From NCBI GenBank assembly GCA_041687695.1, contig JAWLBL010000012.1, positions 1-64,000 on the forward strand: 64,000 nucleotides of DNA, in the 5' to 3' direction. Below are positions 46,887-64,000 of the stretch, in pieces. Both the position numbers and the translations under genes were made by a program. The notes below the pieces were generated by a model. The model did not search any database. It was not told the DNA's origin and saw nothing but the letters and a program-made list of their open reading frames with translations. Position 1 is the first letter of the stretch. The number at the start of each line of letters is the position of its first letter. The stretch is from Myxococcota bacterium. Its GTDB lineage: Bacteria; Myxococcota_A; UBA9042; PHBI01; JAWLBL01.

Positions 46887-48137
46887 ATGGCCCACCTCCC
46901 CTCTCCCGAGCGCCAGGAGCTCCTCCTGACGCGACTCGCGACCCTGATCCGCCAGCGCGGCTGCGGCCCGTGGGTCAACGCGCCGCTGCTGACCCCGGAC
47001 GACCGGTGGTTCCCGGACCGCTGGACGCCCGACGCGGCGGGCGCGCGCGTGGTCTTGCGGCGCCTGATGCGCTACGCCGGCCTCGACCGCCTCGACCTGC
47101 ACCTGCAGGTCGTCCAGCGCCGAGGCAAGGTCCAGGCCCTCGACGCCTACGGCCGCCCCAGCCAGACCTGGCACTCGGGCGCCATCGGCTGGTTCGCCGG
47201 CATCGACGAGCTCGGCAAGTGCCACTTCGGGCTCGACGCTTCCCAGGTCGTCGACCCCGAGGCCCTCGTCGGCACGCTGGCCCACGAGGTCGCCCACGCC
47301 TACCGCCGCCACCACGCCCTCGAGGCGCCCGATCAGGGCGTCGAAGAGGAGCTGACCGACCTCACCACCGTCTTCTTGGGCTTCGGCCTCTTCACGACCA
47401 ACGGCAGCTACCGCTACCGCGCCAGCGGCCTGGACGGCGACGCGCTCGCGGGCGTGCAGTGGAGCCACCAGCAGGCCGGCTACCTGCCCCCCGAGGAGTT
47501 CTCGTTCCTGCTGGCCGCGCAGACCGTCTCGCGCGACGCGGCCCCCGCCCAGGTCAAGGCGCTCGCCGCCTCGCTCGAGCCCAACCAGCGCGCCTTCTTC
47601 AAGACGGCCCGCAAGCACCTGGGCCGCGACCGCCAGGCCCTGCGCGACCGGCTGGGCGTCCCGCCGCGCGACGCCTGGCCGCCCCCGCCCGATCTCGCGC
47701 GCCTGACCCGGCCGCAGGAGAGCAGCGAGCCCGCCCGCCCCGCTCCAACAAGCGCGCGGCCGGCCATCAACCAGGGCATGCCGGTCTTCCGCGTGCCGAC
47801 GCATCGCGGGGACGTCATCGGTCCGTTCGGGGCCGTGGCCGGGCTGGTCGCGGCGCTGGTCGCAGGCCTGGGCGGCCTCGCCGCGCTGGCCGTCATCGGC
47901 GCGAGCTGGCTCGGCGCCCGCGGGGCGGGGCGCGCGCTGACGCTGCGCGACGAGTGCTCGGATCCCGACTGCGCCGAGGTCATCCCGGCCGGCGCCGAGG
48001 TGTGCCCGGCGTGTGGCGGGTTGGTCGCCGGGAGCATCCGGTCGCGCAACGACCGCCTCGAGGCCGAAGAGGACTGGCTCGCGCGCCAGGGGCCGGCGAT
48101 CGAGCTCGAGGCGCGCTCGGAAGACGTCGTGGGCTGA
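46887..48137 (+). CDS. Hypothetical HExxH metallopeptidase-like membrane protein with C-terminal zinc ribbon
   Basis: TLAHEVAH...EELTD, TM hairpin, CSDPDC...CPACGG. Confidence 0.7.
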   Translation: MAHLPSPERQELLLTRLATLIRQRGCGPWVNAPLLTPDDRWFPDRWTPDAAGARVVLRRLMRYAGLDRLDLHLQVVQRRGKVQALDAYGRPSQTWHSGAIGWFAGIDELGKCHFGLDASQVVDPEALVGTLAHEVAHAYRRHHALEAPDQGVEEELTDLTTVFLGFGLFTTNGSYRYRASGLDGDALAGVQWSHQQAGYLPPEEFSFLLAAQTVSRDAAPAQVKALAASLEPNQRAFFKTARKHLGRDRQALRDRLGVPPRDAWPPPPDLARLTRPQESSEPARPAPTSARPAINQGMPVFRVPTHRGDVIGPFGAVAGLVAALVAGLGGLAALAVIGASWLGARGAGRALTLRDECSDPDCAEVIPAGAEVCPACGGLVAGSIRSRNDRLEAEEDWLARQGPAIELEARSEDVVG

Positions 48138-49410: not shown

Positions 49411-50586
49411 CTACTCCCACTCGTCGGTCATCTCGCGCCGGAGCATCGCGTCCATCTGCTTGAGCCCCTCGAGCAGCTCGTTCAGCTGCGCCGGGCTGGC
49501 CAGCATCGCCGCGCACTCGCGCTCGTCCTCGGCCGTGACCTGACCGGCCTCGGCCCGCATCTCCTTGCACATCGGCTTCGAGACGACCGCGCACATCCTA
49601 TCGAGCAGCACCGAGCACGACGACGCCGCCGGTGGGGGCGACGGCCGCGGCGCTGGCTCCGGCTGGGTCACCTTGGGCCCCGGCGTCGGCCCCGGCGTCG
49701 GCGCGGGCCCCAGCACCATCGCCGCCAGATCGGGCCCCGCCTCGCGCCCGCTCTTGCCCAGCACCCGCGCCGGGCCGTGGCGCTCGGGCGTCTGCTCGCG
49801 GTCCTTGACCGTCACCCGCAGCACCTTGTGCGCGTAGGTCACCACCTCGTCGGCCGTCACCTGCCCGTCGGCGTCGGCGTCACCCCACCCTCGCAGCGCC
49901 CCCAGCACCAGGTAGCTGAACGCCGGCCGCCCCGCCCCCGGCAGCGGCCCGGCGAGCTGGTGCGCCTTGCCCGCCGACAGCACCGTGACCGGCGACGCCG
50001 CGGCCTTCGCGTCGGCCACCGGCAGCATCGGCTGCAGCCCCGGCGCCAGCGGCGCGCCGTCTCCCGCGCGCCCCGAGAAGCACGCGTCCAGCACCACCAC
50101 GGCCTCCACGCGCTCGCCCTTCCCCACCGCCTTCAGCAGCTCGGCCCGCGGCAGGCTGCGCGCGTACAGCGTCTTGGCGTTCTGCTGCGCGTCGAAGCCG
50201 ACCAGGACCCCGTCCTGCCCGTCCAGCGCCGGCGCCCCGTGGCCCACGAAGACGAACCACAGGGTCCCGCCCGGCTTGGCGTACCCGGCCGCCTTGGCCA
50301 GCGCGTCGCGCAGGTTCTCGAGGTTGGCCTCGCTGTTGCGCAGCAGGATCACGTTCTCGATCGGCACCTTGCGGTCGCGCGTCAGGTGGCGGTACCAGTC
50401 CTCGGCGTTCCTCGCGGCGCCCGGGACGTCGGGGACGAAGGCGTAGTCCTCGATGCCGACCACGACCGCCGCGTCCTTGGCGCCGCCGCCGAGCGCCGCC
50501 TTGGGCGGGGAGGTCAGATCGGGCCAGGCCGGGGCGGGCTGCGCGAGGGCGGCCGCCGCCGCGAACAGCGGGACGAGCAGGTGCAT
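49411..50586 (-). CDS. Exported caspase-like (peptidase C14) protein
   Basis: Signal peptide, VVVGIEDY, catalytic FVGHG and LDACFSG, DGQVTADE. Confidence 0.88.
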   Translation of the reverse strand: MHLLVPLFAAAAALAQPAPAWPDLTSPPKAALGGGAKDAAVVVGIEDYAFVPDVPGAARNAEDWYRHLTRDRKVPIENVILLRNSEANLENLRDALAKAAGYAKPGGTLWFVFVGHGAPALDGQDGVLVGFDAQQNAKTLYARSLPRAELLKAVGKGERVEAVVVLDACFSGRAGDGAPLAPGLQPMLPVADAKAAASPVTVLSAGKAHQLAGPLPGAGRPAFSYLVLGALRGWGDADADGQVTADEVVTYAHKVLRVTVKDREQTPERHGPARVLGKSGREAGPDLAAMVLGPAPTPGPTPGPKVTQPEPAPRPSPPPAASSCSVLLDRMCAVVSKPMCKEMRAEAGQVTAEDERECAAMLASPAQLNELLEGLKQMDAMLRREMTDEWE

Positions 50587-50782: not shown

Positions 50783-52672
50783 ATGACGCTTGCAGGGCAC
50801 TGGACCACGCGCTTTTCCGACAAGGTCGTCACGGTCGAGCAGGCGATCCGGGCCATCCGCCCCGGACGCCGCGTCCTGGTCGGCTCGGGCGCGGGGGAGC
50901 CCGAGCGGCTGGTCCAGGGCCTCATCGAGCACGGCGCGCACCTGGCGGACAACGAGATCGTGCACCTGCTGACGCTGGGCGCGGCGCCGTACGTCGACCC
51001 CGGGCTCGAGCGGCGCTTCCGACACGTGGCCTTCTTCATCGGGCCCAACGTCCGCAAGGCCGTGCAGGAGGGGCGCGCCGACTTCATGCCGGTGTTCTTG
51101 AGCGAGATCCCGCAGCTCATCCGCAGCCGGCGCGTGCGCATCGACGTCGCGCTGGTGCAGGTCAGCGAGCCCGACGCCCACGGCTACGTCAGCCTGGGCG
51201 TCTCGGTCGACATCGTGCGCGCGGCCGTCGACTCGGCGGCCCTGGTCATCGCCGAGGTCAACCCGCGCATGCCCCGCACCCTGGGCGACTCGTTCGTCCA
51301 CGTCAGCCGCCTGGCCCACCTGGTCCCGGTGGACGCCCCGCTGCCCGAGCTGAAGGCCGAGCCGCTCGACGAGGTCACGCGCACCATCGGCCAGCACGTC
51401 GCCAGCCTCATCCCGGACGGCGCGACCATCCAGACCGGCATCGGCAAGATCCCCCACGCCGTCCTCGAGGCCCTGCGCGACCACCAGGACCTGGGCGTCC
51501 ACACCGAGATGCTGAGCGACAGCGTCATCGATCTGGTCGAGCGCGGCGTCATCAACGGGCGCCGCAAGACGCTGCTGCCCGGCAAGCTGGTGACCTCGTT
51601 CATCATGGGCACCCAGCGCCTGTACGACTGGGCCCACGACAACCCGGCCATCGAGATGCGCCCGTCCGACTTCACCAACGACCCGGTCACCGTCGCCCGC
51701 AACGACTGCATGATGGCCATCAACTCGGCGGTCGCCATCGATCTCACCGGGCAGGTGGCCAGCGACACCGTGCGCGGGCGCTTCTTCAGCGGCATCGGCG
51801 GGCAGGTCGACTTCATCCGGGGCGCGGCGCGCAGCCGGGCGGGCAAGCCCATCATCGCGCTGCCGTCGACGGCGCGCGGCGGGACGGTCAGCCGCATCGT
51901 GCCGACGCTGGACGAGGGCGCGGGGGTCGTCACCAGCCGCGGCGACGTGCGCTACGTGGTGACCGAGTTCGGCGTCGCGGATCTGTGGGGCAAGAACATC
52001 CGGCAGCGCGCGATGGCGCTCATCGAGGTGGCGCACCCGGACTTCCGCGACGCGCTGCTCGAGGCCGCCAAGGGGCGGCGCTACGTGTTCCCGGACCAGC
52101 TGGTGCCGCGGGCGCGCTACCCGTGGGAGGAGGCGTGCGAGGCGAAGACCCGCGACGGCGAGGCCATCGTGGTGCGCCCGGCGCGGGTGGCCGATCACGA
52201 GGCGCTGCAGGACTTCTTCTACGGCTTGAGCGACAAGACCGTGTACCGGCGCTTCATGCAGCACAAGCGGCGCCATCCCCACGCCGAGATCCAGGCGCTG
52301 GTCGACCAGGACTACGAGAGCAGCATGGCGCTGGTGGCGACGCCGGCCGAGCGCCCCGACGAGATCGTGGCGATGGCCCGCTACGATCTGGACCCGGCGA
52401 CCCGGCTGGCCGACATCGCCTTCGTGGTGGCCGACGCCTGGCAGGGCAAGGGGCTGGGGACGTTCCTGATGCGGCGGATGGCCGAGGTCGGGCGCTCGCG
52501 CGACATCGCGGGCTTTTCGGCCGACGTGCTGGCGACCAACCTGGACATGCTAGAGATCTTCAACCGCAGCGGGATGCAGGTGCACGCGGACCTCGACGGG
52601 TCCGAGTACCACGTGACCCTGACCTTCCCGCAGGGCGAGCCGGCCGGCGGAGGCGACGCGGCGGGCGGCTGA
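50783..52672 (+). CDS. Acetyl-CoA hydrolase/CoA-transferase fused to a GNAT domain
   Basis: GATIQTGIGKIP, LGVHTEM, SGIGGQVDF, VVTEFG. C-terminal VADAWQGKGLG...N..ML. Confidence 0.92.
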   Translation: MTLAGHWTTRFSDKVVTVEQAIRAIRPGRRVLVGSGAGEPERLVQGLIEHGAHLADNEIVHLLTLGAAPYVDPGLERRFRHVAFFIGPNVRKAVQEGRADFMPVFLSEIPQLIRSRRVRIDVALVQVSEPDAHGYVSLGVSVDIVRAAVDSAALVIAEVNPRMPRTLGDSFVHVSRLAHLVPVDAPLPELKAEPLDEVTRTIGQHVASLIPDGATIQTGIGKIPHAVLEALRDHQDLGVHTEMLSDSVIDLVERGVINGRRKTLLPGKLVTSFIMGTQRLYDWAHDNPAIEMRPSDFTNDPVTVARNDCMMAINSAVAIDLTGQVASDTVRGRFFSGIGGQVDFIRGAARSRAGKPIIALPSTARGGTVSRIVPTLDEGAGVVTSRGDVRYVVTEFGVADLWGKNIRQRAMALIEVAHPDFRDALLEAAKGRRYVFPDQLVPRARYPWEEACEAKTRDGEAIVVRPARVADHEALQDFFYGLSDKTVYRRFMQHKRRHPHAEIQALVDQDYESSMALVATPAERPDEIVAMARYDLDPATRLADIAFVVADAWQGKGLGTFLMRRMAEVGRSRDIAGFSADVLATNLDMLEIFNRSGMQVHADLDGSEYHVTLTFPQGEPAGGGDAAGG

Positions 52673-52689
52673 GCGCCGGGAGCGGGCGG

Positions 52690-52952
52690 AGATCTACGGA
52701 CCTGGGTCGAAGCGGGGGGAGTGGGCATCGGCTCTCGCCAGCGGGGATCCAGCTGACCGGGTAGCCATTGGGGACCGCTGTCGGGGTTCAGCGTCCGCCG
52801 GGCGCCCTGCCGGGCCGTGGGTCGATGCGCGATGCCACTCGGGGTTCGACACGTCCGCGTGGGGAGCGCGGACGCTGACGGGGCGTCGGGGAGGGCGCCA
52901 CCGTCACGAGGTCTGGATGTCAGAGGCCACCGGGGAGGGAGGCCAGCGACGC
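52690..52952 (-). ncRNA. Candidate sRNA made of tandem hairpins with C-rich loops
   Basis: Six hairpins with CUCCCC/AACCCC/AUCCCC loops directly downstream of a sigma54 motif, in a gap between convergent genes. 3' end uncertain. Confidence 0.55.
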
Positions 52953-52962
52953 CCAGAGAGAT

Positions 52963-52979
52963 TGCACGACCCGTGCCAA
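52963..52979 (-). promoter_or_regulatory. Sigma54 -24/-12 promoter
   Basis: Minus strand TTGGCACGGGTCGTGCA versus consensus TGGCACG-N4-TTGC(A/T), one mismatch. Confidence 0.65.
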
Positions 52980-53192
52980 CCGAACCGATGGCCAGCAACT
53001 TGGCGGCCTTCGCGCGAAACCGGGGCGGGCGAGCCGCTCACAACCCGGCGAAAACGCGTCGGTTTGCGAGATTTCTCGCTCCTGAGTGGGGGACGCCCCG
53101 GCGGGCGCAGACGCCAAGCGGCCGAACCGGTCCCCAGCGGTCGGTCAAGGGGGGAGCGGCGGATTCCGGTGGCAGGCGCGGCGTCGCCGGGC

Positions 53193-55469
<2,277 letters not shown>

Positions 55470-55853: not shown

Positions 55854-58742
55854 ATGTCCAGAAGTCGCCACCCGTCGCGGCCGCGTCCGCCGCGTCGCGT
55901 CTCGTCGCTGCAAAGACAGCTGTCGGGCCCCGCCGTCGTGGCGGGCGCCCAGGTCGTCGTCCTGTCCGAGACGCCGCCGCGTCCGCCCGACCCGCTCGCG
56001 CTGGCGCGCGCCCTGCTGACGCCGCAGCTGCCCGACGTGGACGAGCTGGCCAGGCGAGTGGGCGCCAAGCAGGCCGTCCCGCTGTCGCCGGAGCTGCAGG
56101 TCCAGGCCTGGCGCCAGGGCGCCGCGTTGGCGTCCTTGCCGGAGCTGGTCCGGCGCGCGGCCGCCCACGGCCCTCCGCAGACGCGCGTCGGGCTGGCCGC
56201 CGAGGCGCTGATCTCGCTGGACGCCCCGGAGCGGCACGCGCCCCTGCTGGCGCGGCTGCTCGCCGAGGCGCCGCCCGCGCCCGGTCAGCGGCCTCCGGGA
56301 CCGGGTGGGCCGGCGGTCGCCTCGCGCGTCGCGGCGAGGCGGGCCCTGGCCGCGCTGAGGGCCGGCGTGCTGTACGGCCCGGCCGTGGCCGCCCACGCCG
56401 CGGCGGTGCTGGCCGCGCGCGAAGCGCCGCCGGGCGATGACGAGCTCGTGCTGGCGGCGCTGCTGCTCGTGCCGTCGGCGCGCGCGACGCCGCCGGACGT
56501 CGACGCGGACGGGCTGAGGCTGTTGGTGCGGGGGCTGAGGCACCAGGAGACCGAGCGCGCCGTGGCCTTGCTGAGCGCCCTCTCCGGTCTGCCGCGCGAG
56601 GCGCTCGGGCGGCTGCGCTGGTGGCATCTGAGGTGCGTGTCGCGGCCCGAGCTGCTCGGCGATCTCCTGCAGCGGGGCATCGAGCCGACGTCCCACGAGG
56701 CGCTGCGGGCCTCGGCGCCCGCGCGGCGCTGGCTGGCGCTGGCGACCGACCTCGCGGCCGCCGCGGGCGGGGGCGCGGAGCCGGACTTCGCCGGGCTCGC
56801 GCCGGACGAGGACGCCGTGGTGCGCCTGTCGGCCCGCCGCCGCGCCGACGACCCGCTGAGCGTGCTGGGCGCGCTGGCGCTGGTCCGCCAGGCGCTGCGC
56901 CACGGGCACGACGCCGAGGCCGTCGCCGCGCGCGCGATCGCGCTGGGGCGTCGCTGCGCGCCGCTGATGCGGGTCCTGGACGCGTGGCGGACCGTCGACC
57001 TGGCCGCGCCGCCGCCCGAGCTGGCGGAGGTGGCCCGGGTGACGGGGCTCGCGCCCGAGGTGGTGGCGCGTTATCTGAGGTTCCGCGAGCTGACCGGCGA
57101 GGGGGCGACCTTCTCGCGGGCGCTGCGAGAGGCGCTGCAGGCGCCGCCGGAGCGGGTCGAGGCGGCCGGCAAGCGGGCGCGGCGACGGCTGGAGCGGGCG
57201 CTGCCCGAGCTGGGGCGCGAGGCCTTGAAGCAACTGGTCGAGGACGCTGCGTTGCGAGCCCTTGGCGACGTGGTCGGCCGGCGCGCCGCGGCGCGGCCGC
57301 TGTCACGCGAGGATCTGGGGCGGCTGCAGGGCCTCTTCGTCGACTTGCGGACGCGGTTGCCGCTGGTCGGGGCGCTGGTGCGGGAGGCGGTCGGCCGGCA
57401 GGCGCTGGCGTCGCGGCCGCCGAACGCCGCCTGGTGCGAGCGGGCGCGGGCCGCGGGGGTCGACGTCGAGGCGTGGCTGGGCGGGCTGGACGTCGAGGTC
57501 GAGGTCGCGGGCGAGCGGCTGCGCGTGCAGACCGAGGCGGATCCCTGGGCCGTGCTGGACATGGGGACCTGGTTCGGCACCTGCCTGAGCCTGGAGGGCG
57601 GCTTCAACTGCGCGTCGACGCTGGTCAACGCGCTGGACGTGAACAAGCACCTGGTGGTCGCGCGGCGCGCCGACGGGAAGGTCTTCGGACGCAAGCTGAT
57701 CGGGGCGACCGCGCGCGGCGAGCTGGCCGGCTACCACACCTACGCGCACGAGCACGGGTTGGCGTTGCGTGAGGCCCTGTCCGAGGCGCTGCGCGGGTTC
57801 GCGGCGCGGTGTGGGCTGCGGCCGTCGGACCGGGCGACGCCCGAGGTGCTGCACGACGGGTTCTGGTACGACGACGGCAACGAGGGCTGGCAGGCGCGCA
57901 CGGCGGCCGGGCCGCATGCGGGCGAGGTGGCGCGGGCCTTGCGGGCCGGGCGGGCGCCGACGGCGGCCGGGCGCACGTTCGGGGACGACCTGGCCTGGCG
58001 GCTGGCGGTCTACGGCGTGCCGGCGTGTCGACCGGCGGTGGCTCGGCTGGCCGGTCTGGGGCCGGAGGCCGCCGTGAGGATCGCGGTCGACGCGCTGGTC
58101 CGGCGGCGTCCCGACGCGGGGGCCCTGCGGCTGCTGGCGCGGGCGAGCCGTGAAGCGGCGCGGCGCGGCGGCAGGTTGCCGCCGGTGCCGATCGAGGCAG
58201 GCGAGTGCTCGGTGGATTGGCTGACGGCGCTGCTGGAGGCGCTGCCCGACGCGCCCGAGGGCGGGGTGGTGACGCGGTGGGCGGACGCGCTGGCGACGGC
58301 GGGACGGCGCGAGGGGACGCTGGCGGCGTTCGCGGGGTCGCGGGCGGTGCCGGGAGTGGCGCGGGGGTTGCTGGTGGCGGCGCTGGAGGCGCGCGGGTGC
58401 TGGCCCGAGCCGACGGTGCGCGGTGGGCGGCGCGACGCGGGGCCGAGGCCGGCGGACCGGCTGCGGGCGTGCCTGGGCGAGGCCGAGGGGCCGAGCCGGT
58501 CCTGGGCGGTGAGGGCGGCGGCCTGCGCGGCGCGCATGGACGCCGGGGAGGTGGCGACGGTGGTGGCCGGGAGCGAGACGCTGGGCGAGGCCAAGGTGGT
58601 CGACCTGGCGATCGCCGAGGACGCGGCGGGGCGGCCGTGGGGGCCGCTGACGCGGGCGGCGTTGGGGGCGCTGGGCGAGGCGACGCGCCGGAGGGCGCTG
58701 GCCGAGGTGAAGCGCTGGCTGGGCGACGGTGGGGGCTGCTAG
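55854..58742 (+). CDS. Large hypothetical protein (962 aa)
   Basis: Long ORF with host-like codon usage, mostly helical and Ala/Arg-rich, with one enzyme-looking segment MGTWFGTCLSLEGGFN...NALDVNK. Confidence 0.7.
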   Translation: MSRSRHPSRPRPPRRVSSLQRQLSGPAVVAGAQVVVLSETPPRPPDPLALARALLTPQLPDVDELARRVGAKQAVPLSPELQVQAWRQGAALASLPELVRRAAAHGPPQTRVGLAAEALISLDAPERHAPLLARLLAEAPPAPGQRPPGPGGPAVASRVAARRALAALRAGVLYGPAVAAHAAAVLAAREAPPGDDELVLAALLLVPSARATPPDVDADGLRLLVRGLRHQETERAVALLSALSGLPREALGRLRWWHLRCVSRPELLGDLLQRGIEPTSHEALRASAPARRWLALATDLAAAAGGGAEPDFAGLAPDEDAVVRLSARRRADDPLSVLGALALVRQALRHGHDAEAVAARAIALGRRCAPLMRVLDAWRTVDLAAPPPELAEVARVTGLAPEVVARYLRFRELTGEGATFSRALREALQAPPERVEAAGKRARRRLERALPELGREALKQLVEDAALRALGDVVGRRAAARPLSREDLGRLQGLFVDLRTRLPLVGALVREAVGRQALASRPPNAAWCERARAAGVDVEAWLGGLDVEVEVAGERLRVQTEADPWAVLDMGTWFGTCLSLEGGFNCASTLVNALDVNKHLVVARRADGKVFGRKLIGATARGELAGYHTYAHEHGLALREALSEALRGFAARCGLRPSDRATPEVLHDGFWYDDGNEGWQARTAAGPHAGEVARALRAGRAPTAAGRTFGDDLAWRLAVYGVPACRPAVARLAGLGPEAAVRIAVDALVRRRPDAGALRLLARASREAARRGGRLPPVPIEAGECSVDWLTALLEALPDAPEGGVVTRWADALATAGRREGTLAAFAGSRAVPGVARGLLVAALEARGCWPEPTVRGGRRDAGPRPADRLRACLGEAEGPSRSWAVRAAACAARMDAGEVATVVAGSETLGEAKVVDLAIAEDAAGRPWGPLTRAALGALGEATRRRALAEVKRWLGDGGGC

Positions 58743-58751
58743 GGTGCGGGG

Positions 58752-60278
58752 ATGAAGCGCTTCGGGTGGGTGATGGTGGGGCTGGCCGCCGCGTGCGGGG
58801 GCGAGCCGGCGGGAGAGGCCGAGACGGTGGCCGACGTCGTGGCCGAGGCGGAGACCGCGGCGGACGCCGAGGCCGAGGCCGGGGCCGACGCCGAGACGGG
58901 GACCGGGGGCGACGCCGAGGCCGAGACGGTGGCCGACGCCGAGGCCGAGACGGTGGCCGACGCCGAGGCCGAGACGGTGGCCGGACCGGTCCCGGGTGCT
59001 CTCGAGGGGTTGCCGACGCTGGGCGAGACGCTGTGTCTGGCGCACCCGCCGCAGTGGACCGACGTCGAGCGGCAGGCGGCGGTCGAGCGGCTGCTGGAGG
59101 CCGGCGTCGGGACGGTGCGGTTCGATCTCCGCTGGGCCTACACCGAGAAGCAGCCGGGGACCTTCGACTGGAGCTGGATCGACGCCAGCGCCGAGGTGTA
59201 CGCGGGCGCGGGGCTCGAGCTGCTGGGGCTCCTGTGGGCTGGCAACCCCTGGGCCAGCAGCCACCCGAAGGCGGACCAGTTCTACCCACCGGACGACCCG
59301 GCCGAGTTCGGCGACTTCGTCGAGGCGGCCGTCACCCACCTGGGCGACCGGGCCTGGCGCTTCGAGATCTGGAACGAGCCCAACGCCGGCTACCGGTTCT
59401 GGAAGGGCGTGCCGTCGGGCGGGATCGTGTCCAAGGGCGACCCGGCGGCCTTCGGGGCGCTGCTGAAGGAGGCCACCGCGCGCGGGCGCGCCGCCTGCCC
59501 GGATTGCGAGTTCGCCTTTGGCGGCCCGTTCTTCCACGACCTGGGCATCGACGGGCACGTGACGTTCCTGGCCGACGCCTTCGCCGCGCACCCGGACCTG
59601 GGCGAGTCGTTCGACGCGATGGGCTTTCACCCCTACGCGATGTACCCGCCGCTGGCGGCGCCCGAGGAGGGCGAGTCCGAGCTGGAGCTGCCGGTCTGGG
59701 AGATGGCGGCGCAGGTGCGCGCGGTGATGGCCGCGCACGGGGCCGGCGACCGGCCGCTGTGGACGACCGAGATCGGATGGCCGGTCTGGGGCGAGACCAC
59801 GCCCGAGCGGCAGGCCGTCTATCTGGTGCGCGCGCACTTGCATCTGGTCGCCCTGGCCGCCGCGCCGGTCTGCTGGTACGAGCTGTACGACGGCCCCGAA
59901 CCGGACGGCTTCCCGCCCGAGGACGCCTTCGGGCTGCTCAGTCACCTGGACCCGGCGACCGGGCTGGGCGGCGAGCCGAAGCCGGCCTTCCACGCCCTGG
60001 CGCAGCTGGGCAACCGCTTCGCCGCCCACCGCCCGACCCGCGATCTGGCCGCGGGCGGCGCCCTGCCGGCCGGCGCCTTCGGCTACGAGCTGCGCGCCGA
60101 CGGGGGCGACGACGTCTGGTGGGCTTTGTGGACGCACCCAGCGAAGGCGCTCACCGCCGCCCTGCCCGCGCCGGTCGCCGAGGCGCGCGCCCTGACCGGC
60201 GAGCCGCTGCAGGCGCTGGTCGGCCAGACGACCGCCACGCTGGGCGAGGCGCCGATCTTCTTGCGGCTCGCGCCGTAA
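58752..60278 (+). CDS. Clan GH-A glycoside hydrolase lipoprotein (GH39/GH5-like)
   Basis: Lipobox LAAAC, acid/base EIWNEPN, FHPY, nucleophile WTTEIGW, 24-bp DAEAETVA repeats at about 58911-58982. Confidence 0.85.
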   Translation: MKRFGWVMVGLAAACGGEPAGEAETVADVVAEAETAADAEAEAGADAETGTGGDAEAETVADAEAETVADAEAETVAGPVPGALEGLPTLGETLCLAHPPQWTDVERQAAVERLLEAGVGTVRFDLRWAYTEKQPGTFDWSWIDASAEVYAGAGLELLGLLWAGNPWASSHPKADQFYPPDDPAEFGDFVEAAVTHLGDRAWRFEIWNEPNAGYRFWKGVPSGGIVSKGDPAAFGALLKEATARGRAACPDCEFAFGGPFFHDLGIDGHVTFLADAFAAHPDLGESFDAMGFHPYAMYPPLAAPEEGESELELPVWEMAAQVRAVMAAHGAGDRPLWTTEIGWPVWGETTPERQAVYLVRAHLHLVALAAAPVCWYELYDGPEPDGFPPEDAFGLLSHLDPATGLGGEPKPAFHALAQLGNRFAAHRPTRDLAAGGALPAGAFGYELRADGGDDVWWALWTHPAKALTAALPAPVAEARALTGEPLQALVGQTTATLGEAPIFLRLAP

Positions 60279-61443: not shown

Positions 61444-62805
61444 TCAGCCGCGGGTCGACAGGGCGCCCAGCATGGCGTCGACCAGCCAGATCCAGCCGCG
61501 GAAGCCCAGGGTCGGCGCGTCGAACAGCGCGTGGCGGTGGAACGACGGGAAGCCCAGCTCGAGCAGGCGCGGGCGCGGGTGGGCGTCGGTGACCGACAGG
61601 TGGGCCGTGCTGTTGCCGACGAAGAGATCGAGGCCGGGGGCGGCCTGGGCCTCGGCGACGACGCGGTCGAGCATGGTGTGCGAGGGGGCGAAGCAGGCGC
61701 GGACCGGCTCGAAGCCCTCGGGCGAGAAGTCCAGGCCCTCGGGGCGGCGGGCCGAGGCGGCGAGCAGCGGGACCGTCATGCCCAGCTCCTCGCAGGTCGC
61801 GAGGAAGCCGGGGAAGCAGTGCGGGTCGCCAGCGAAGGCGACGCGCTTGCCGGCGAAGTAGTGGGGCACGACCCACTCGAGGCGCGGGACGGCGCGGGCG
61901 AGCTCGGCCTCGCAGAGGGCGTCGGCGCGGTCGAGGCGGCCGACGGCGCGGCCCAGCCCGCGGACGAAGCGGCGGGTGGCGCGCAGGCCGAAGGGCAGCG
62001 GCAGGTCCAGGACGCGCGCGCCGGAGCGGCCGGCCAGGGCGTGGGCGGCGCGCTTGCCGTGGGGCAAGGCGACGACCAGCTCGGCCTCGCCGGCGGCGGC
62101 CAGGTCCTCGTAGCGCGAGCCGTCGAGCCAGACGGAGGTGACCTCGAGCCCGAGCGCCTCGCACAGCCGCCGCAGCTCGGCGGTGTTGGCGCGGTTGTCC
62201 TCTTCGTTGCGGTCGAAGAGGTAGCCGACCAGGGCGACCCGGCCGGGGCGCGGGGCCGCGGAGGGCAGCGCGATGTGGCGGGCGATGGCGAGCAGGGTCT
62301 CGTCGTAGCCGTCGAGCCAGTCGCCGTCGAGCGAGCGGCTGGGGACCTCTAGCATCGGGAAGGGGATCTCGGGCTGCAGATCGGCCAGGATGCGGTCGTA
62401 CTGCGTGCCGATGATCATGACGTGGGGCATCGAGCAGACGAGCGCGGCGCCGACCTTCGGGATGCGCGCGACGCGGCGGATGCGGTCGCGGACCTCGCTG
62501 CCGTCGCTCTTGATGACCCGCGAGGAGTACAAGAGCGTCGAGACGATGCGGTGCTCGCCCATGGCGTCGAGCAGGGTCGAGTTGAGGTCGTGCTTGCCGT
62601 GGACCCACTCGGCCTTGCGGTACAGGCAGTCGGGGCCGTCGATGACCGCGTAGGCGTCGGAGATGGCGTTGATGGCCGTGTACAGGCCCAGCTGGTAGGG
62701 CAGCCGGTACGAGCGGGTGTGGCGCTCGGCGGGCAGCGGCTCGAGCAGCTCGACGCCGGGGCGGTCGGTCGGGAAGACGGCCTCGGGGACGCGCGCGGTG
62801 GTCAT
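61444..62805 (-). CDS. Nitrogenase component 1 type oxidoreductase-like protein
   Basis: AVIDGPDC, IIGTQY, DWLDGY, VALVG, ELRRL..ALGLEV, PFGLRATRRF, GKRVA, LGFP...PTLGFRG. About 453 aa. Confidence 0.8.
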   Translation of the reverse strand: MTTARVPEAVFPTDRPGVELLEPLPAERHTRSYRLPYQLGLYTAINAISDAYAVIDGPDCLYRKAEWVHGKHDLNSTLLDAMGEHRIVSTLLYSSRVIKSDGSEVRDRIRRVARIPKVGAALVCSMPHVMIIGTQYDRILADLQPEIPFPMLEVPSRSLDGDWLDGYDETLLAIARHIALPSAAPRPGRVALVGYLFDRNEEDNRANTAELRRLCEALGLEVTSVWLDGSRYEDLAAAGEAELVVALPHGKRAAHALAGRSGARVLDLPLPFGLRATRRFVRGLGRAVGRLDRADALCEAELARAVPRLEWVVPHYFAGKRVAFAGDPHCFPGFLATCEELGMTVPLLAASARRPEGLDFSPEGFEPVRACFAPSHTMLDRVVAEAQAAPGLDLFVGNSTAHLSVTDAHPRPRLLELGFPSFHRHALFDAPTLGFRGWIWLVDAMLGALSTRG

Positions 62806-64000
62806 GGGCGGCCTCCTTCGAGGCCGAAGGCGCTGCCGAGGTAGCGGCCGTACAGGCGGTAGAAGGGCATGGCGCAGCGGCTGAGCAGGGCCTCGGCGGT
62901 GCGGACGGCCCCGGCGGGCCCGCAGTCGACGTCGCGCAGCGAGAACACGTTCTTGCCGAGGCGGGTCAGGCGCTTGTCGAAGAAGATCTCGGAGTAGAAG
63001 GCGACCGCCGGGGCGCGGCGCAGGGCGTCCTGCAGCTCGGCGGGCGAGGCGAAGCCGTGCAGGACGTGGCCGGGCAGGGTCGGCGGCGGCGGCGGGCCGG
63101 TGGCCGTGAAGGCCAGGATGTCTACGCCGGAGAAGCCGATCTCGGCCACGAGGTCGAACAGCGGCACGCCCATCAGGCGGCTGGCGGTGAACAGGCCCCG
63201 CCAGTCGGCCCGGTCGCTGACGACGCCCAGGCGGTAGGCGCGGGCGCGGCCACGCAGGGCGTCCCAGCGCTCGGCGACGCGGGCCTCTTCGAGGTCCCAG
63301 ACGTCGCAGGCGCGCTCGAGCAGCCCCAGCGGCTCGGCGATGGCCAGCAGCCACCGGCGCGTGCCGTCGAGCCCGAAGGGGGCCGGCGGGCGGAGCAGCG
63401 GGATGTCGGGGAAGCGCTCGGCGAGGCCTTCGACGGGGCGGGCGTAGCGGTCCCAGCCGTAGGCGACGTTGAGCGCGGCCTCGCCCAGGCCCACCAGCCC
63501 CTCGGGGCTGACGTCGGGGAAGACCGAGCAGCCGATCTCGACGCCGATGGCCTCGAGCAGGCGCACCAGATCCGCGCGCCCCGGCATGTCCGGGAAGCCC
63601 AGCAGGTTCACGCGGTTGGCCACGCGGCGGGACCCGCGCACGCGGGGGTCCGCGCTGAGCTTTTGCAGCAGGACGTCCTGCGGGTTGTTCTCGTTGCCGA
63701 CGACCACGATGGGTACGCCGATGCGGGTCTGGGCGCGGGCGGCCGCGGCCTCGAGGTCGTCGCCGGTCACCATCGGGACGCAGCTGTTGTAGACGACGAC
63801 CATGTTGGGCTTGGACGGCAGGTCGGCCACCCCCTCGAGCACCTCTTGCAGCTTGGCGTCGCCGCCCTTGATGACGTCCAAGTCCGACAGATCGGTGATG
63901 AGCCCCTCGTCGGCGGGGCGGCGCTCCTTCTGGGTGTTCGGCGCGACGGTGTTGAAGAACCCGACGGTGCCTCGGTCGGCCACGGTCGCGTTGAAGCTGC
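62802..64000 (-). CDS. Second nitrogenase component 1-like protein (5' partial)
   Basis: TDLSDLDVIKGGDAKL, NSCVPMVTGDDL, VNLLGF, PFGLDGTRRWL. The frame is open to the window edge and its stop overlaps the next ATG. Confidence 0.8.
   Translation of the reverse strand, partial: SFNATVADRGTVGFFNTVAPNTQKERRPADEGLITDLSDLDVIKGGDAKLQEVLEGVADLPSKPNMVVVYNSCVPMVTGDDLEAAAARAQTRIGVPIVVVGNENNPQDVLLQKLSADPRVRGSRRVANRVNLLGFPDMPGRADLVRLLEAIGVEIGCSVFPDVSPEGLVGLGEAALNVAYGWDRYARPVEGLAERFPDIPLLRPPAPFGLDGTRRWLLAIAEPLGLLERACDVWDLEEARVAERWDALRGRARAYRLGVVSDRADWRGLFTASRLMGVPLFDLVAEIGFSGVDILAFTATGPPPPPTLPGHVLHGFASPAELQDALRRAPAVAFYSEIFFDKRLTRLGKNVFSLRDVDCGPAGAVRTAEALLSRCAMPFYRLYGRYLGSAFGLEGGRP

Follow-up and report, generated by a model that had tools for sequence, protein, structure and literature searches.

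Six sibling loci for a predicted sigma54-driven non-coding RNA with C-rich loops in a Myxococcota genome

The window considered here is a 64,000-nt stretch of DNA from a Myxococcota bacterium. It contains a 520-bp gap (52673-53192) between two convergent genes, as had been claimed in the preliminary description (Table 1). A sigma54 promoter had been placed on the minus strand of this gap, with a palindrome further upstream (53066-53079), and both are present. The promoter reads TGGCAC-N5-GTGCA (52978-52963), which we take to be one mismatch away from the sigma54 consensus, and its -24/-12 spacing presumably puts the +1 near 52952. Neither an intrinsic terminator nor a sigma70-like promoter was found at the locus, and the 3' boundary of the RNA at 52699 is a predicted end, namely the end of a closing stem. 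The 256 nt of the RNA region hold nine C4 runs and no G4 run, a C4 count that is equalled by 946 of 248,702 genome windows. The best match of Rfam 15 (E 4.6) is located outside the RNA. Elsewhere in the window, the C-terminal part of a frame at 61444-63354 (minus strand) resembles, we presume, a nitrogenase component-1-like oxidoreductase, and the long, coding-like frames at 55854-58742, 58752-60278, 49411-50586 and 46887-48137 gave no Pfam match at E 0.001.

Table 1. Features of the RNA locus, its flanking genes and the expanded sibling.
Feature	Position	Strand	Remark
Acetyl-CoA hydrolase/transferase + GNAT domain fusion	50783-52672	+	Flanking gene, convergent, outside the element
MaeB malic enzyme-PTA fusion	53193-55469	-	Flanking gene upstream, same strand; absent from the other copies
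Candidate enhancer-binding-protein site, including the palindrome	53066-53082	-	Gibbs sampling of six upstream regions
Sigma54 -24/-12 promoter	52963-52978	-	Sequence; counterpart before all six copies; RpoN gene in genome
Predicted non-coding RNA, ~255 nt	52699-52952	-	Similarity to paralogue C7a begins at 52952
Hairpin 1, loop CUCCCC (52937-52932)	52919-52950	-	8 pairs, 2 compensatory; 100% paired in 4 copies
Closing stem, 5' strand	52909-52913	-	Pairs with 52703-52699
Hairpin 2, loop (C)CUCCCC	52876-52906	-	Top seed in target prediction
Hairpin 3, loop CUCCCCA	52851-52875	-	Stem sequence varies between copies
Long bulged arm	52719-52841	-	Most conserved part; 16 of 43 pairs compensatory
Expanded copy C8 (locus L034), ~610 nt	G000:C8:32160-31548	-	Same arm behind many more C-rich loops

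Six hairpins had been claimed for this RNA. Four of them fold as described (52944-52925, -9.1 kcal/mol; 52906-52876, -15.7; 52874-52852, -13.6; 52793-52776, -5.6), and in the ensemble the CCCC bases of these four stay 98-100% unpaired. The other two are not confirmed as family hairpins: 52851-52833 reaches only a negligible -0.9 kcal/mol, and 52756-52738 (-6.9 kcal/mol) appears in the single-sequence fold, yet the comparative structure makes it the 3' side of the long arm. According to the comparative model both are really strands of this arm, and the predicted architecture combines three C-loop hairpins with a single long conserved arm instead of stringing six hairpins together. The shared fold begins with a 5' hairpin, followed by the closing stem (5 bp in the window copy, 13 bp in the siblings C32 and C7a), two more CUCCCC-loop hairpins and the long bulged arm, which is tipped by AACCCCGA. 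In the window copy this apical loop lies at 52788-52781 (minus strand), and the arm contains an invariant internal-loop core (52813-52805 with 52761-52749). A kink-turn in the arm was considered and rejected, as the required G-A pairs are by eye not conserved. The window copy alone only modestly beats its shuffles (z -1.9; 8 of 200 shuffles as good), and the main evidence is therefore comparative. The single folds of C32, C7a and C7b (z -4.3, -2.75 and -1.6) agree with the consensus fold.

The host genome (7.97 Mb, 73% GC, 99% complete) holds five further copies. Three of these, C32, C7a and C7b, were found by BLAST. C35 (66 bits) and, as a weak match, C8 (19 bits, E 0.4) emerged from a covariance model in whose construction the promoter was left out; the 219 bits given to the window RNA follow by construction. 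Upstream of all five lies a TGGCAY-N6-TGC promoter, a pattern that occurs once per 117 kb of strand (a chance of 4e-4 per 50 nt) and that was used to find the copies neither by the models nor by the BLAST core matches. The four standard siblings (C32, C7a, C7b and C35) are 63-70% identical to the window copy, and C32 and C7a are 91% identical to each other, upstream DNA included. In the sixth copy, C8, promoter and arm are separated by ~480 additional C-rich bases, and the copy runs to the stop of the convergent gene; the arm is the only conserved part that it retains. All six copies are intergenic and their neighbours are unrelated, so that the suggested association with maeB is not conserved. 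Since the next gene is convergent in four of the six, the RNA was rejected as a leader of the downstream gene. When 134 strict sigma54-like sites were scored for CCCC loops downstream, family members accounted for three of the three sites with four loops and for two of the five with three loops, while C8 scored 0 over its first 270 nt. At E ≤ 1, Rfam 15 gave a single unrelated match across the six loci, in a flank.

Two further elements were observed in the same genome. A separate palindromic dispersed repeat of ~60 nt (94 BLAST matches) is found near C32, C7a and C7b, for example at G000:C7:257290-257350. At G000:C9:79380 (minus strand), an intergenic sigma54-like promoter is followed by ~200 nt with C-rich-loop hairpins and short C/U-rich repeats; this element faces a convergent gene, has no match to the family arm and is a candidate for a second sRNA.

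In the six-row alignment, 20 of the 67 pairs are altered in both partners, a number that none of 500 shuffles reaches, and 95.8% of its 331 cells are paired. Slid controls give at most three compensatory pairs. These values are to be read for an alignment of six related sequences that was adjusted to fit a structure obtained from four of its rows, with C35 and C8 supplying only the arm. Read on the minus strand, the alignment contains 13 G-U against three A-C cells. The minus strand is favoured because the promoter lies there and because of this G-U bias. The preliminary description had cautioned that one stem pairs slightly better on the plus strand, and the plus strand is indeed lower in folding energy in all six copies, as expected for a G-rich complement. 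The Csr-like reading of that strand fails, given that no CsrA was found and that promoter and G-U bias favour the opposite one. For CsrA, PF02599 gave no match in the 99% complete genome, while control genomes do give matches.

Among the copies the stems are replaced and the CUCCCC loops are kept, just as had been noted for the window copy. The number of CCC-bearing loops per copy is 4, 4, 4, 3, 4 and 9, reached by 3/60, 1/60, 1/60, 1/60, 0/60 and 0/15 shuffles, respectively; the fold counted for C8 took in ~130 nt of the convergent gene. The original proposal of a sigma54-driven, multi-loop regulatory RNA without a known family is thus supported by five more promoter-bearing copies, by covariation and by the lack of an Rfam match. 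The locus is very probably a free-standing gene for a structured non-coding RNA, one of six siblings.

A second shared element lies upstream. All six copies carry the motif GGTG(G/C)KGAWWWT at 104-118 nt ahead of their -24 element. In leave-one-out scoring it is outscored by 4, 0, 2, 0, 0 and 0 of 142 other intergenic sigma54-like promoters, the window copy being the weakest fit. The palindrome, which had been placed where an enhancer-binding protein would sit, coincides with this common motif. An RpoN gene is found in the genome, along with ~25 enhancer-binding-like proteins recognised by motif; the nearest cluster of this RpoN is mostly from Myxococcota, which is a hint. No enhancer-binding-protein gene was recognised beside any of the six copies. 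Genome-wide, 148 intergenic sigma54-like promoters were counted, and among those listed many precede, by eye, signal-peptide- or lipoprotein-like N-termini. A type IV pilin-like gene (by eye) follows one of them at C8:94508. Others stand directly before copies of one gene (G000:C12:219149, C29:230 and C44:230), which we assume to resemble a Y1/RAYT-type transposase, and the ends of C22 and C43 carry similar ones.

The family is lineage-restricted and apparently undescribed. The host genome is the sole member of its taxonomic family among the genomes searched. A BLAST-type search of 40 relatives gave matches confined to flanks or short chance pieces. Covariance model R1 returned, from five genomes of the order, one match at E 0.035 that lacks promoter and fold. 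The core pattern was absent from 17 other genomes of the order, and its five single matches in 400 genomes of the phylum equal the five in the reversed control. A promoter-plus-hairpin pattern had two matches in 106 other genomes of the class, both in coding or leader DNA without model score. Scans of metagenomes and of a genome collection gave three and 45 matches, respectively, all at 19 bits or less with R1 and none with model R2, and two viral scans gave none. R2 likewise found nothing in 17 (order), 106 (class) and 150 (phylum sample) other genomes, where it scored 150, 30 and 21 candidates per genome, respectively, so weak homologues may escape it; exact-pattern searches miss diverged members. 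A description of this RNA was not found in the largely non-subscription literature searched. The ncRNA survey of M. xanthus to which PMC8538405 refers, or supplementary data, may contain an unnamed relative.

A small part of the stretch is shared by five soil runs, which come from two studies; four of these runs (X1-X4) were aligned. In the RNA-seq run X1, four of six contigs cover 52715-52923 at 95-100% identity and in more than one variant. Over the flanking genes the same run gave no close contig and two short low-identity pieces in maeB. These contigs suggest that the family is transcribed, although they carry no strand, end or level information and an RNA library may contain DNA. Runs X2-X4 are probably DNA. 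In these, two contigs match exactly to 52952 and then diverge, and a third spans the promoter with changes in the spacer and alongside, the -24/-12 core being intact among the differences listed (7 of 17 lie outside the list). At 15 mapped positions, the soil variants show one compensatory pair (52771/52798) and two pairs retained through G-U; four variants break model pairs as mapped, where indels may shift the register, and seven fall in model-unpaired positions, one of them breaking a pair of hairpin 3.

From these data we favour, at a probability of about 0.5, a set of Hfq-independent anti-Shine-Dalgarno sibling sRNAs that would act like the cuckoo RNAs and sX13 while belonging to neither. 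An enhancer-binding protein bound ~115-140 nt upstream would turn on sigma54 transcription of all six genes together. Each RNA is predicted to fold with three or more CUCCCC or CCUCCCC loops left single-stranded, on stems that are backed by covariation. The loops are complementary to GGAGG and GGGGAG Shine-Dalgarno sites, with which they most likely pair independently of Hfq; no match to Hfq was detected in the genome. By analogy with cuckoo, sX13 and RsaE-type RNAs, this pairing would prevent ribosomes from loading onto a wide range of mRNAs, and the RNA probably lowers the protein output of many genes simultaneously. The long arm, which does not vary even in C8, is probably a protein-binding or processing/stability module.

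In this genome GGAGG and GGGGAG are most frequent 5-15 nt ahead of start codons (GGGGAG before the start codon in 143 genes), a peak that is partly circular because start calling rewarded Shine-Dalgarno motifs. Accessibility-weighted pairing, run without a shuffled-RNA control, places 143 of the 200 best predicted targets of the window copy at -20 to -6, mostly via hairpin 2. The Shine-Dalgarno peaks and the predicted targets at these positions are the reason why Hfq-independent occlusion of the Shine-Dalgarno site is favoured. At G000:C13:598-3244 (minus strand), two genes that by eye resemble ftsA and ftsZ each carry a GGGGAGG ribosome-binding site. They rank 5th and 35th, respectively, of 5357 predicted targets, which in this uncontrolled prediction is a lead. 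No 16S 3' end was located in the assembly. Hardly any start region is matched by the AACCCCGA loop, and this non-Shine-Dalgarno loop, the conservation of the arm and the expanded copy are not explained by base pairing with mRNA.

The main, if tentative, alternative is that of a multivalent sponge, in which the C-rich loops would titrate a protein that prefers single-stranded C, such as an RRM protein, KhpA/KhpB or Rho. Possibly, such a sponge would resemble the titration of CsrA by CsrB/RsmZ and of Hfq by CrcZ, with a different protein and loop code. The replacement of the stems around a constant loop motif fits this reading, as does a loop number that runs from 3-4 to at least nine in the expanded copy; the 610-nt C8, with its many more C-rich loops, looks more sponge-like. 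The genome encodes five RRM proteins and KhpA, whereas CsrA and Hfq were not found, and redundant siblings under sigma54 have a parallel in CrcZ as far as the available source material goes. A KhpB structure with a C-rich 10-mer, mainly with backbone contacts, is cited in the accessible part of bioRxiv 10.64898/2026.10.12.757534. However, inspection of N-termini by eye revealed no RNA-binding-protein gene next to any of the copies, the loop sequence is specifically that of the anti-Shine-Dalgarno core, CUCCC/CCUCC, and not just any C-rich stretch, and known C-loop sRNAs target mRNAs. A more elaborate and rather doubtful proposal is a Csr-like global control of opposite polarity: a fixed protein-binding arm and an expandable C-loop array (3 to 9 or more), in six copies under one sigma54 activator, would titrate an unrecognised RRM/KH-type C-loop-binding translational regulator or recruit it to G-rich ribosome-binding sites. 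It is unlikely, in turn, that the RNA is a precursor cut into short active C-loop hairpins, or that its function resides in the conserved arm, which would dock on a larger machine. This would agree with NrsZ and Pxr-L/Pxr-S, both sigma54-driven in the portions of their descriptions at hand, with the arm as the only conserved part of the expanded copy and with the missing intrinsic terminator. In four copies, nevertheless, the modules are bracketed by the conserved closing stem, which points to an RNA folded as one unit. Such processing or docking is compatible with anti-Shine-Dalgarno pairing, and the two are non-exclusive.

Coding and repeat-based explanations were weighed as well. A dual-function or peptide-coding RNA is highly improbable: an SD-like GGAGG/GGACG and a start codon (ATG in three copies, GTG in one, CTG in the window copy) do stand at a fixed place in the arm, and ~17 codons stay in frame in four copies, but the frames end at unrelated lengths (83, 82, 71 and 57 aa), C35 is out of frame and C8 is without a start. 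In addition, the differences between the window copy and C32 are non-synonymous and consistent with stem pairing, and the soil variants have a one-base insertion within the frame. There is similarly very little to be said for a dispersed REP/MITE-type DNA repeat or a small mobile element without RNA function. Dispersed copies with unrelated neighbours, the two copies that are 91% identical including their upstream DNA, the separate 60-nt repeat (94 BLAST matches) near several copies and the narrow lineage range would all suit it. Against it, only six copies exist, their similarity begins at the predicted +1, promoter and upstream motif precede each copy in the same orientation, and the G-U bias indicates RNA pairing on one strand. 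The possibility, raised at the outset, that the element is simply a REP-type repeat did not hold in view of this copy number and of the promoter and upstream motif before each copy. A 6S paralogue was also rejected, as the genome's own 6S RNA (RF00013) sits elsewhere, at C6:268078-268262.

Few regulatory RNAs have been characterised in myxobacteria-like organisms; the part of PMC8538405 that could be consulted names only Pxr for myxobacteria. The siblings described here bear on sRNA action where Hfq and CsrA are missing. They offer a defined fold, six natural variants (one of them size-expanded) and a candidate activator site common to all, and provide a sharp test of Shine-Dalgarno blocking versus protein titration. 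To search for an RNA-binding partner in such bacteria, the conserved arm offers a ready-made bait. The reach of the family is limited by its narrow, apparently uncultured lineage.

CsrB/RsmZ titrate CsrA, and the sigma54-driven CrcZ titrates Hfq; their motifs are GGA or A-rich. The present family resembles them in its multivalent repeated motifs and its redundancy, but neither of their partner proteins, CsrA and Hfq, was detected in the genome. Repeated GGA does not occur in loops of the transcribed strand, and GGGGAG loops are present only on the promoterless one.

Pxr of the Myxococcales, in the accessible parts of PMC5684412 and PMC5568312, is ~110 nt long with three stem-loops and tandem paralogues, always next to pxrR/nla19; long and short forms exist (PMC5684412). 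Pxr and the present family both have a sigma54 promoter and an upstream enhancer site, here by sequence consensus only, as well as paralogues with a promoter each, a myxobacterial-type host and a lineage-restricted origin. In contrast to Pxr as described, the RNAs studied here are ~255 nt long and dispersed, with differing neighbours. NrsZ of Pseudomonas is, in the available excerpt of PMC4253122, an RpoN transcript of at least 226 nt that is processed into three stem-loop modules of variable number, with the loop motif ACAGGCAG, a single locus by ntrC and a proposed role as activator of rhlA. It is likewise RpoN-driven, of similar length and built on a repeated loop motif with a variable module number. 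Its loop motif, single locus and context differ, however, and there is no sequence likeness.

The cuckoo RNAs (ar14/CcsR/RSs0680) are similar in that several hairpins with variable stems display a repeated C-rich, anti-Shine-Dalgarno-like loop, in multiple paralogues per genome that are poorly conserved beyond the genus. In these alphaproteobacterial RNAs, as stated in the consulted sections of PMC4615179, CCUCCUCCC is found in every hairpin loop, and 2-4 adjacent hairpins make up the whole structure. Here the loop is CUCCCC(A) and never the full CCUCCUCCC anti-Shine-Dalgarno motif (0 occurrences in the loops of six of six copies), and a closing stem and a 120-nt conserved arm are added, giving ~255 nt. 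The promoter is of the sigma54 type, against RpoH for RSs0680, no Hfq was detected in the host, and the phylum is another one. For sX13 of Xanthomonas, the passages available from PMC3771888 report that CCCC loops act without Hfq on mRNAs with G-rich motifs near the start, and that compensatory mutants failed. Whereas sX13 has three stem-loops and lies beside polA, the present RNAs are six siblings with sigma54 promoters and a long arm, and no link to polA was seen. The two share CCCC loops on stable hairpins in a high-GC host, the loops here being predicted to be exposed on stems that covary.
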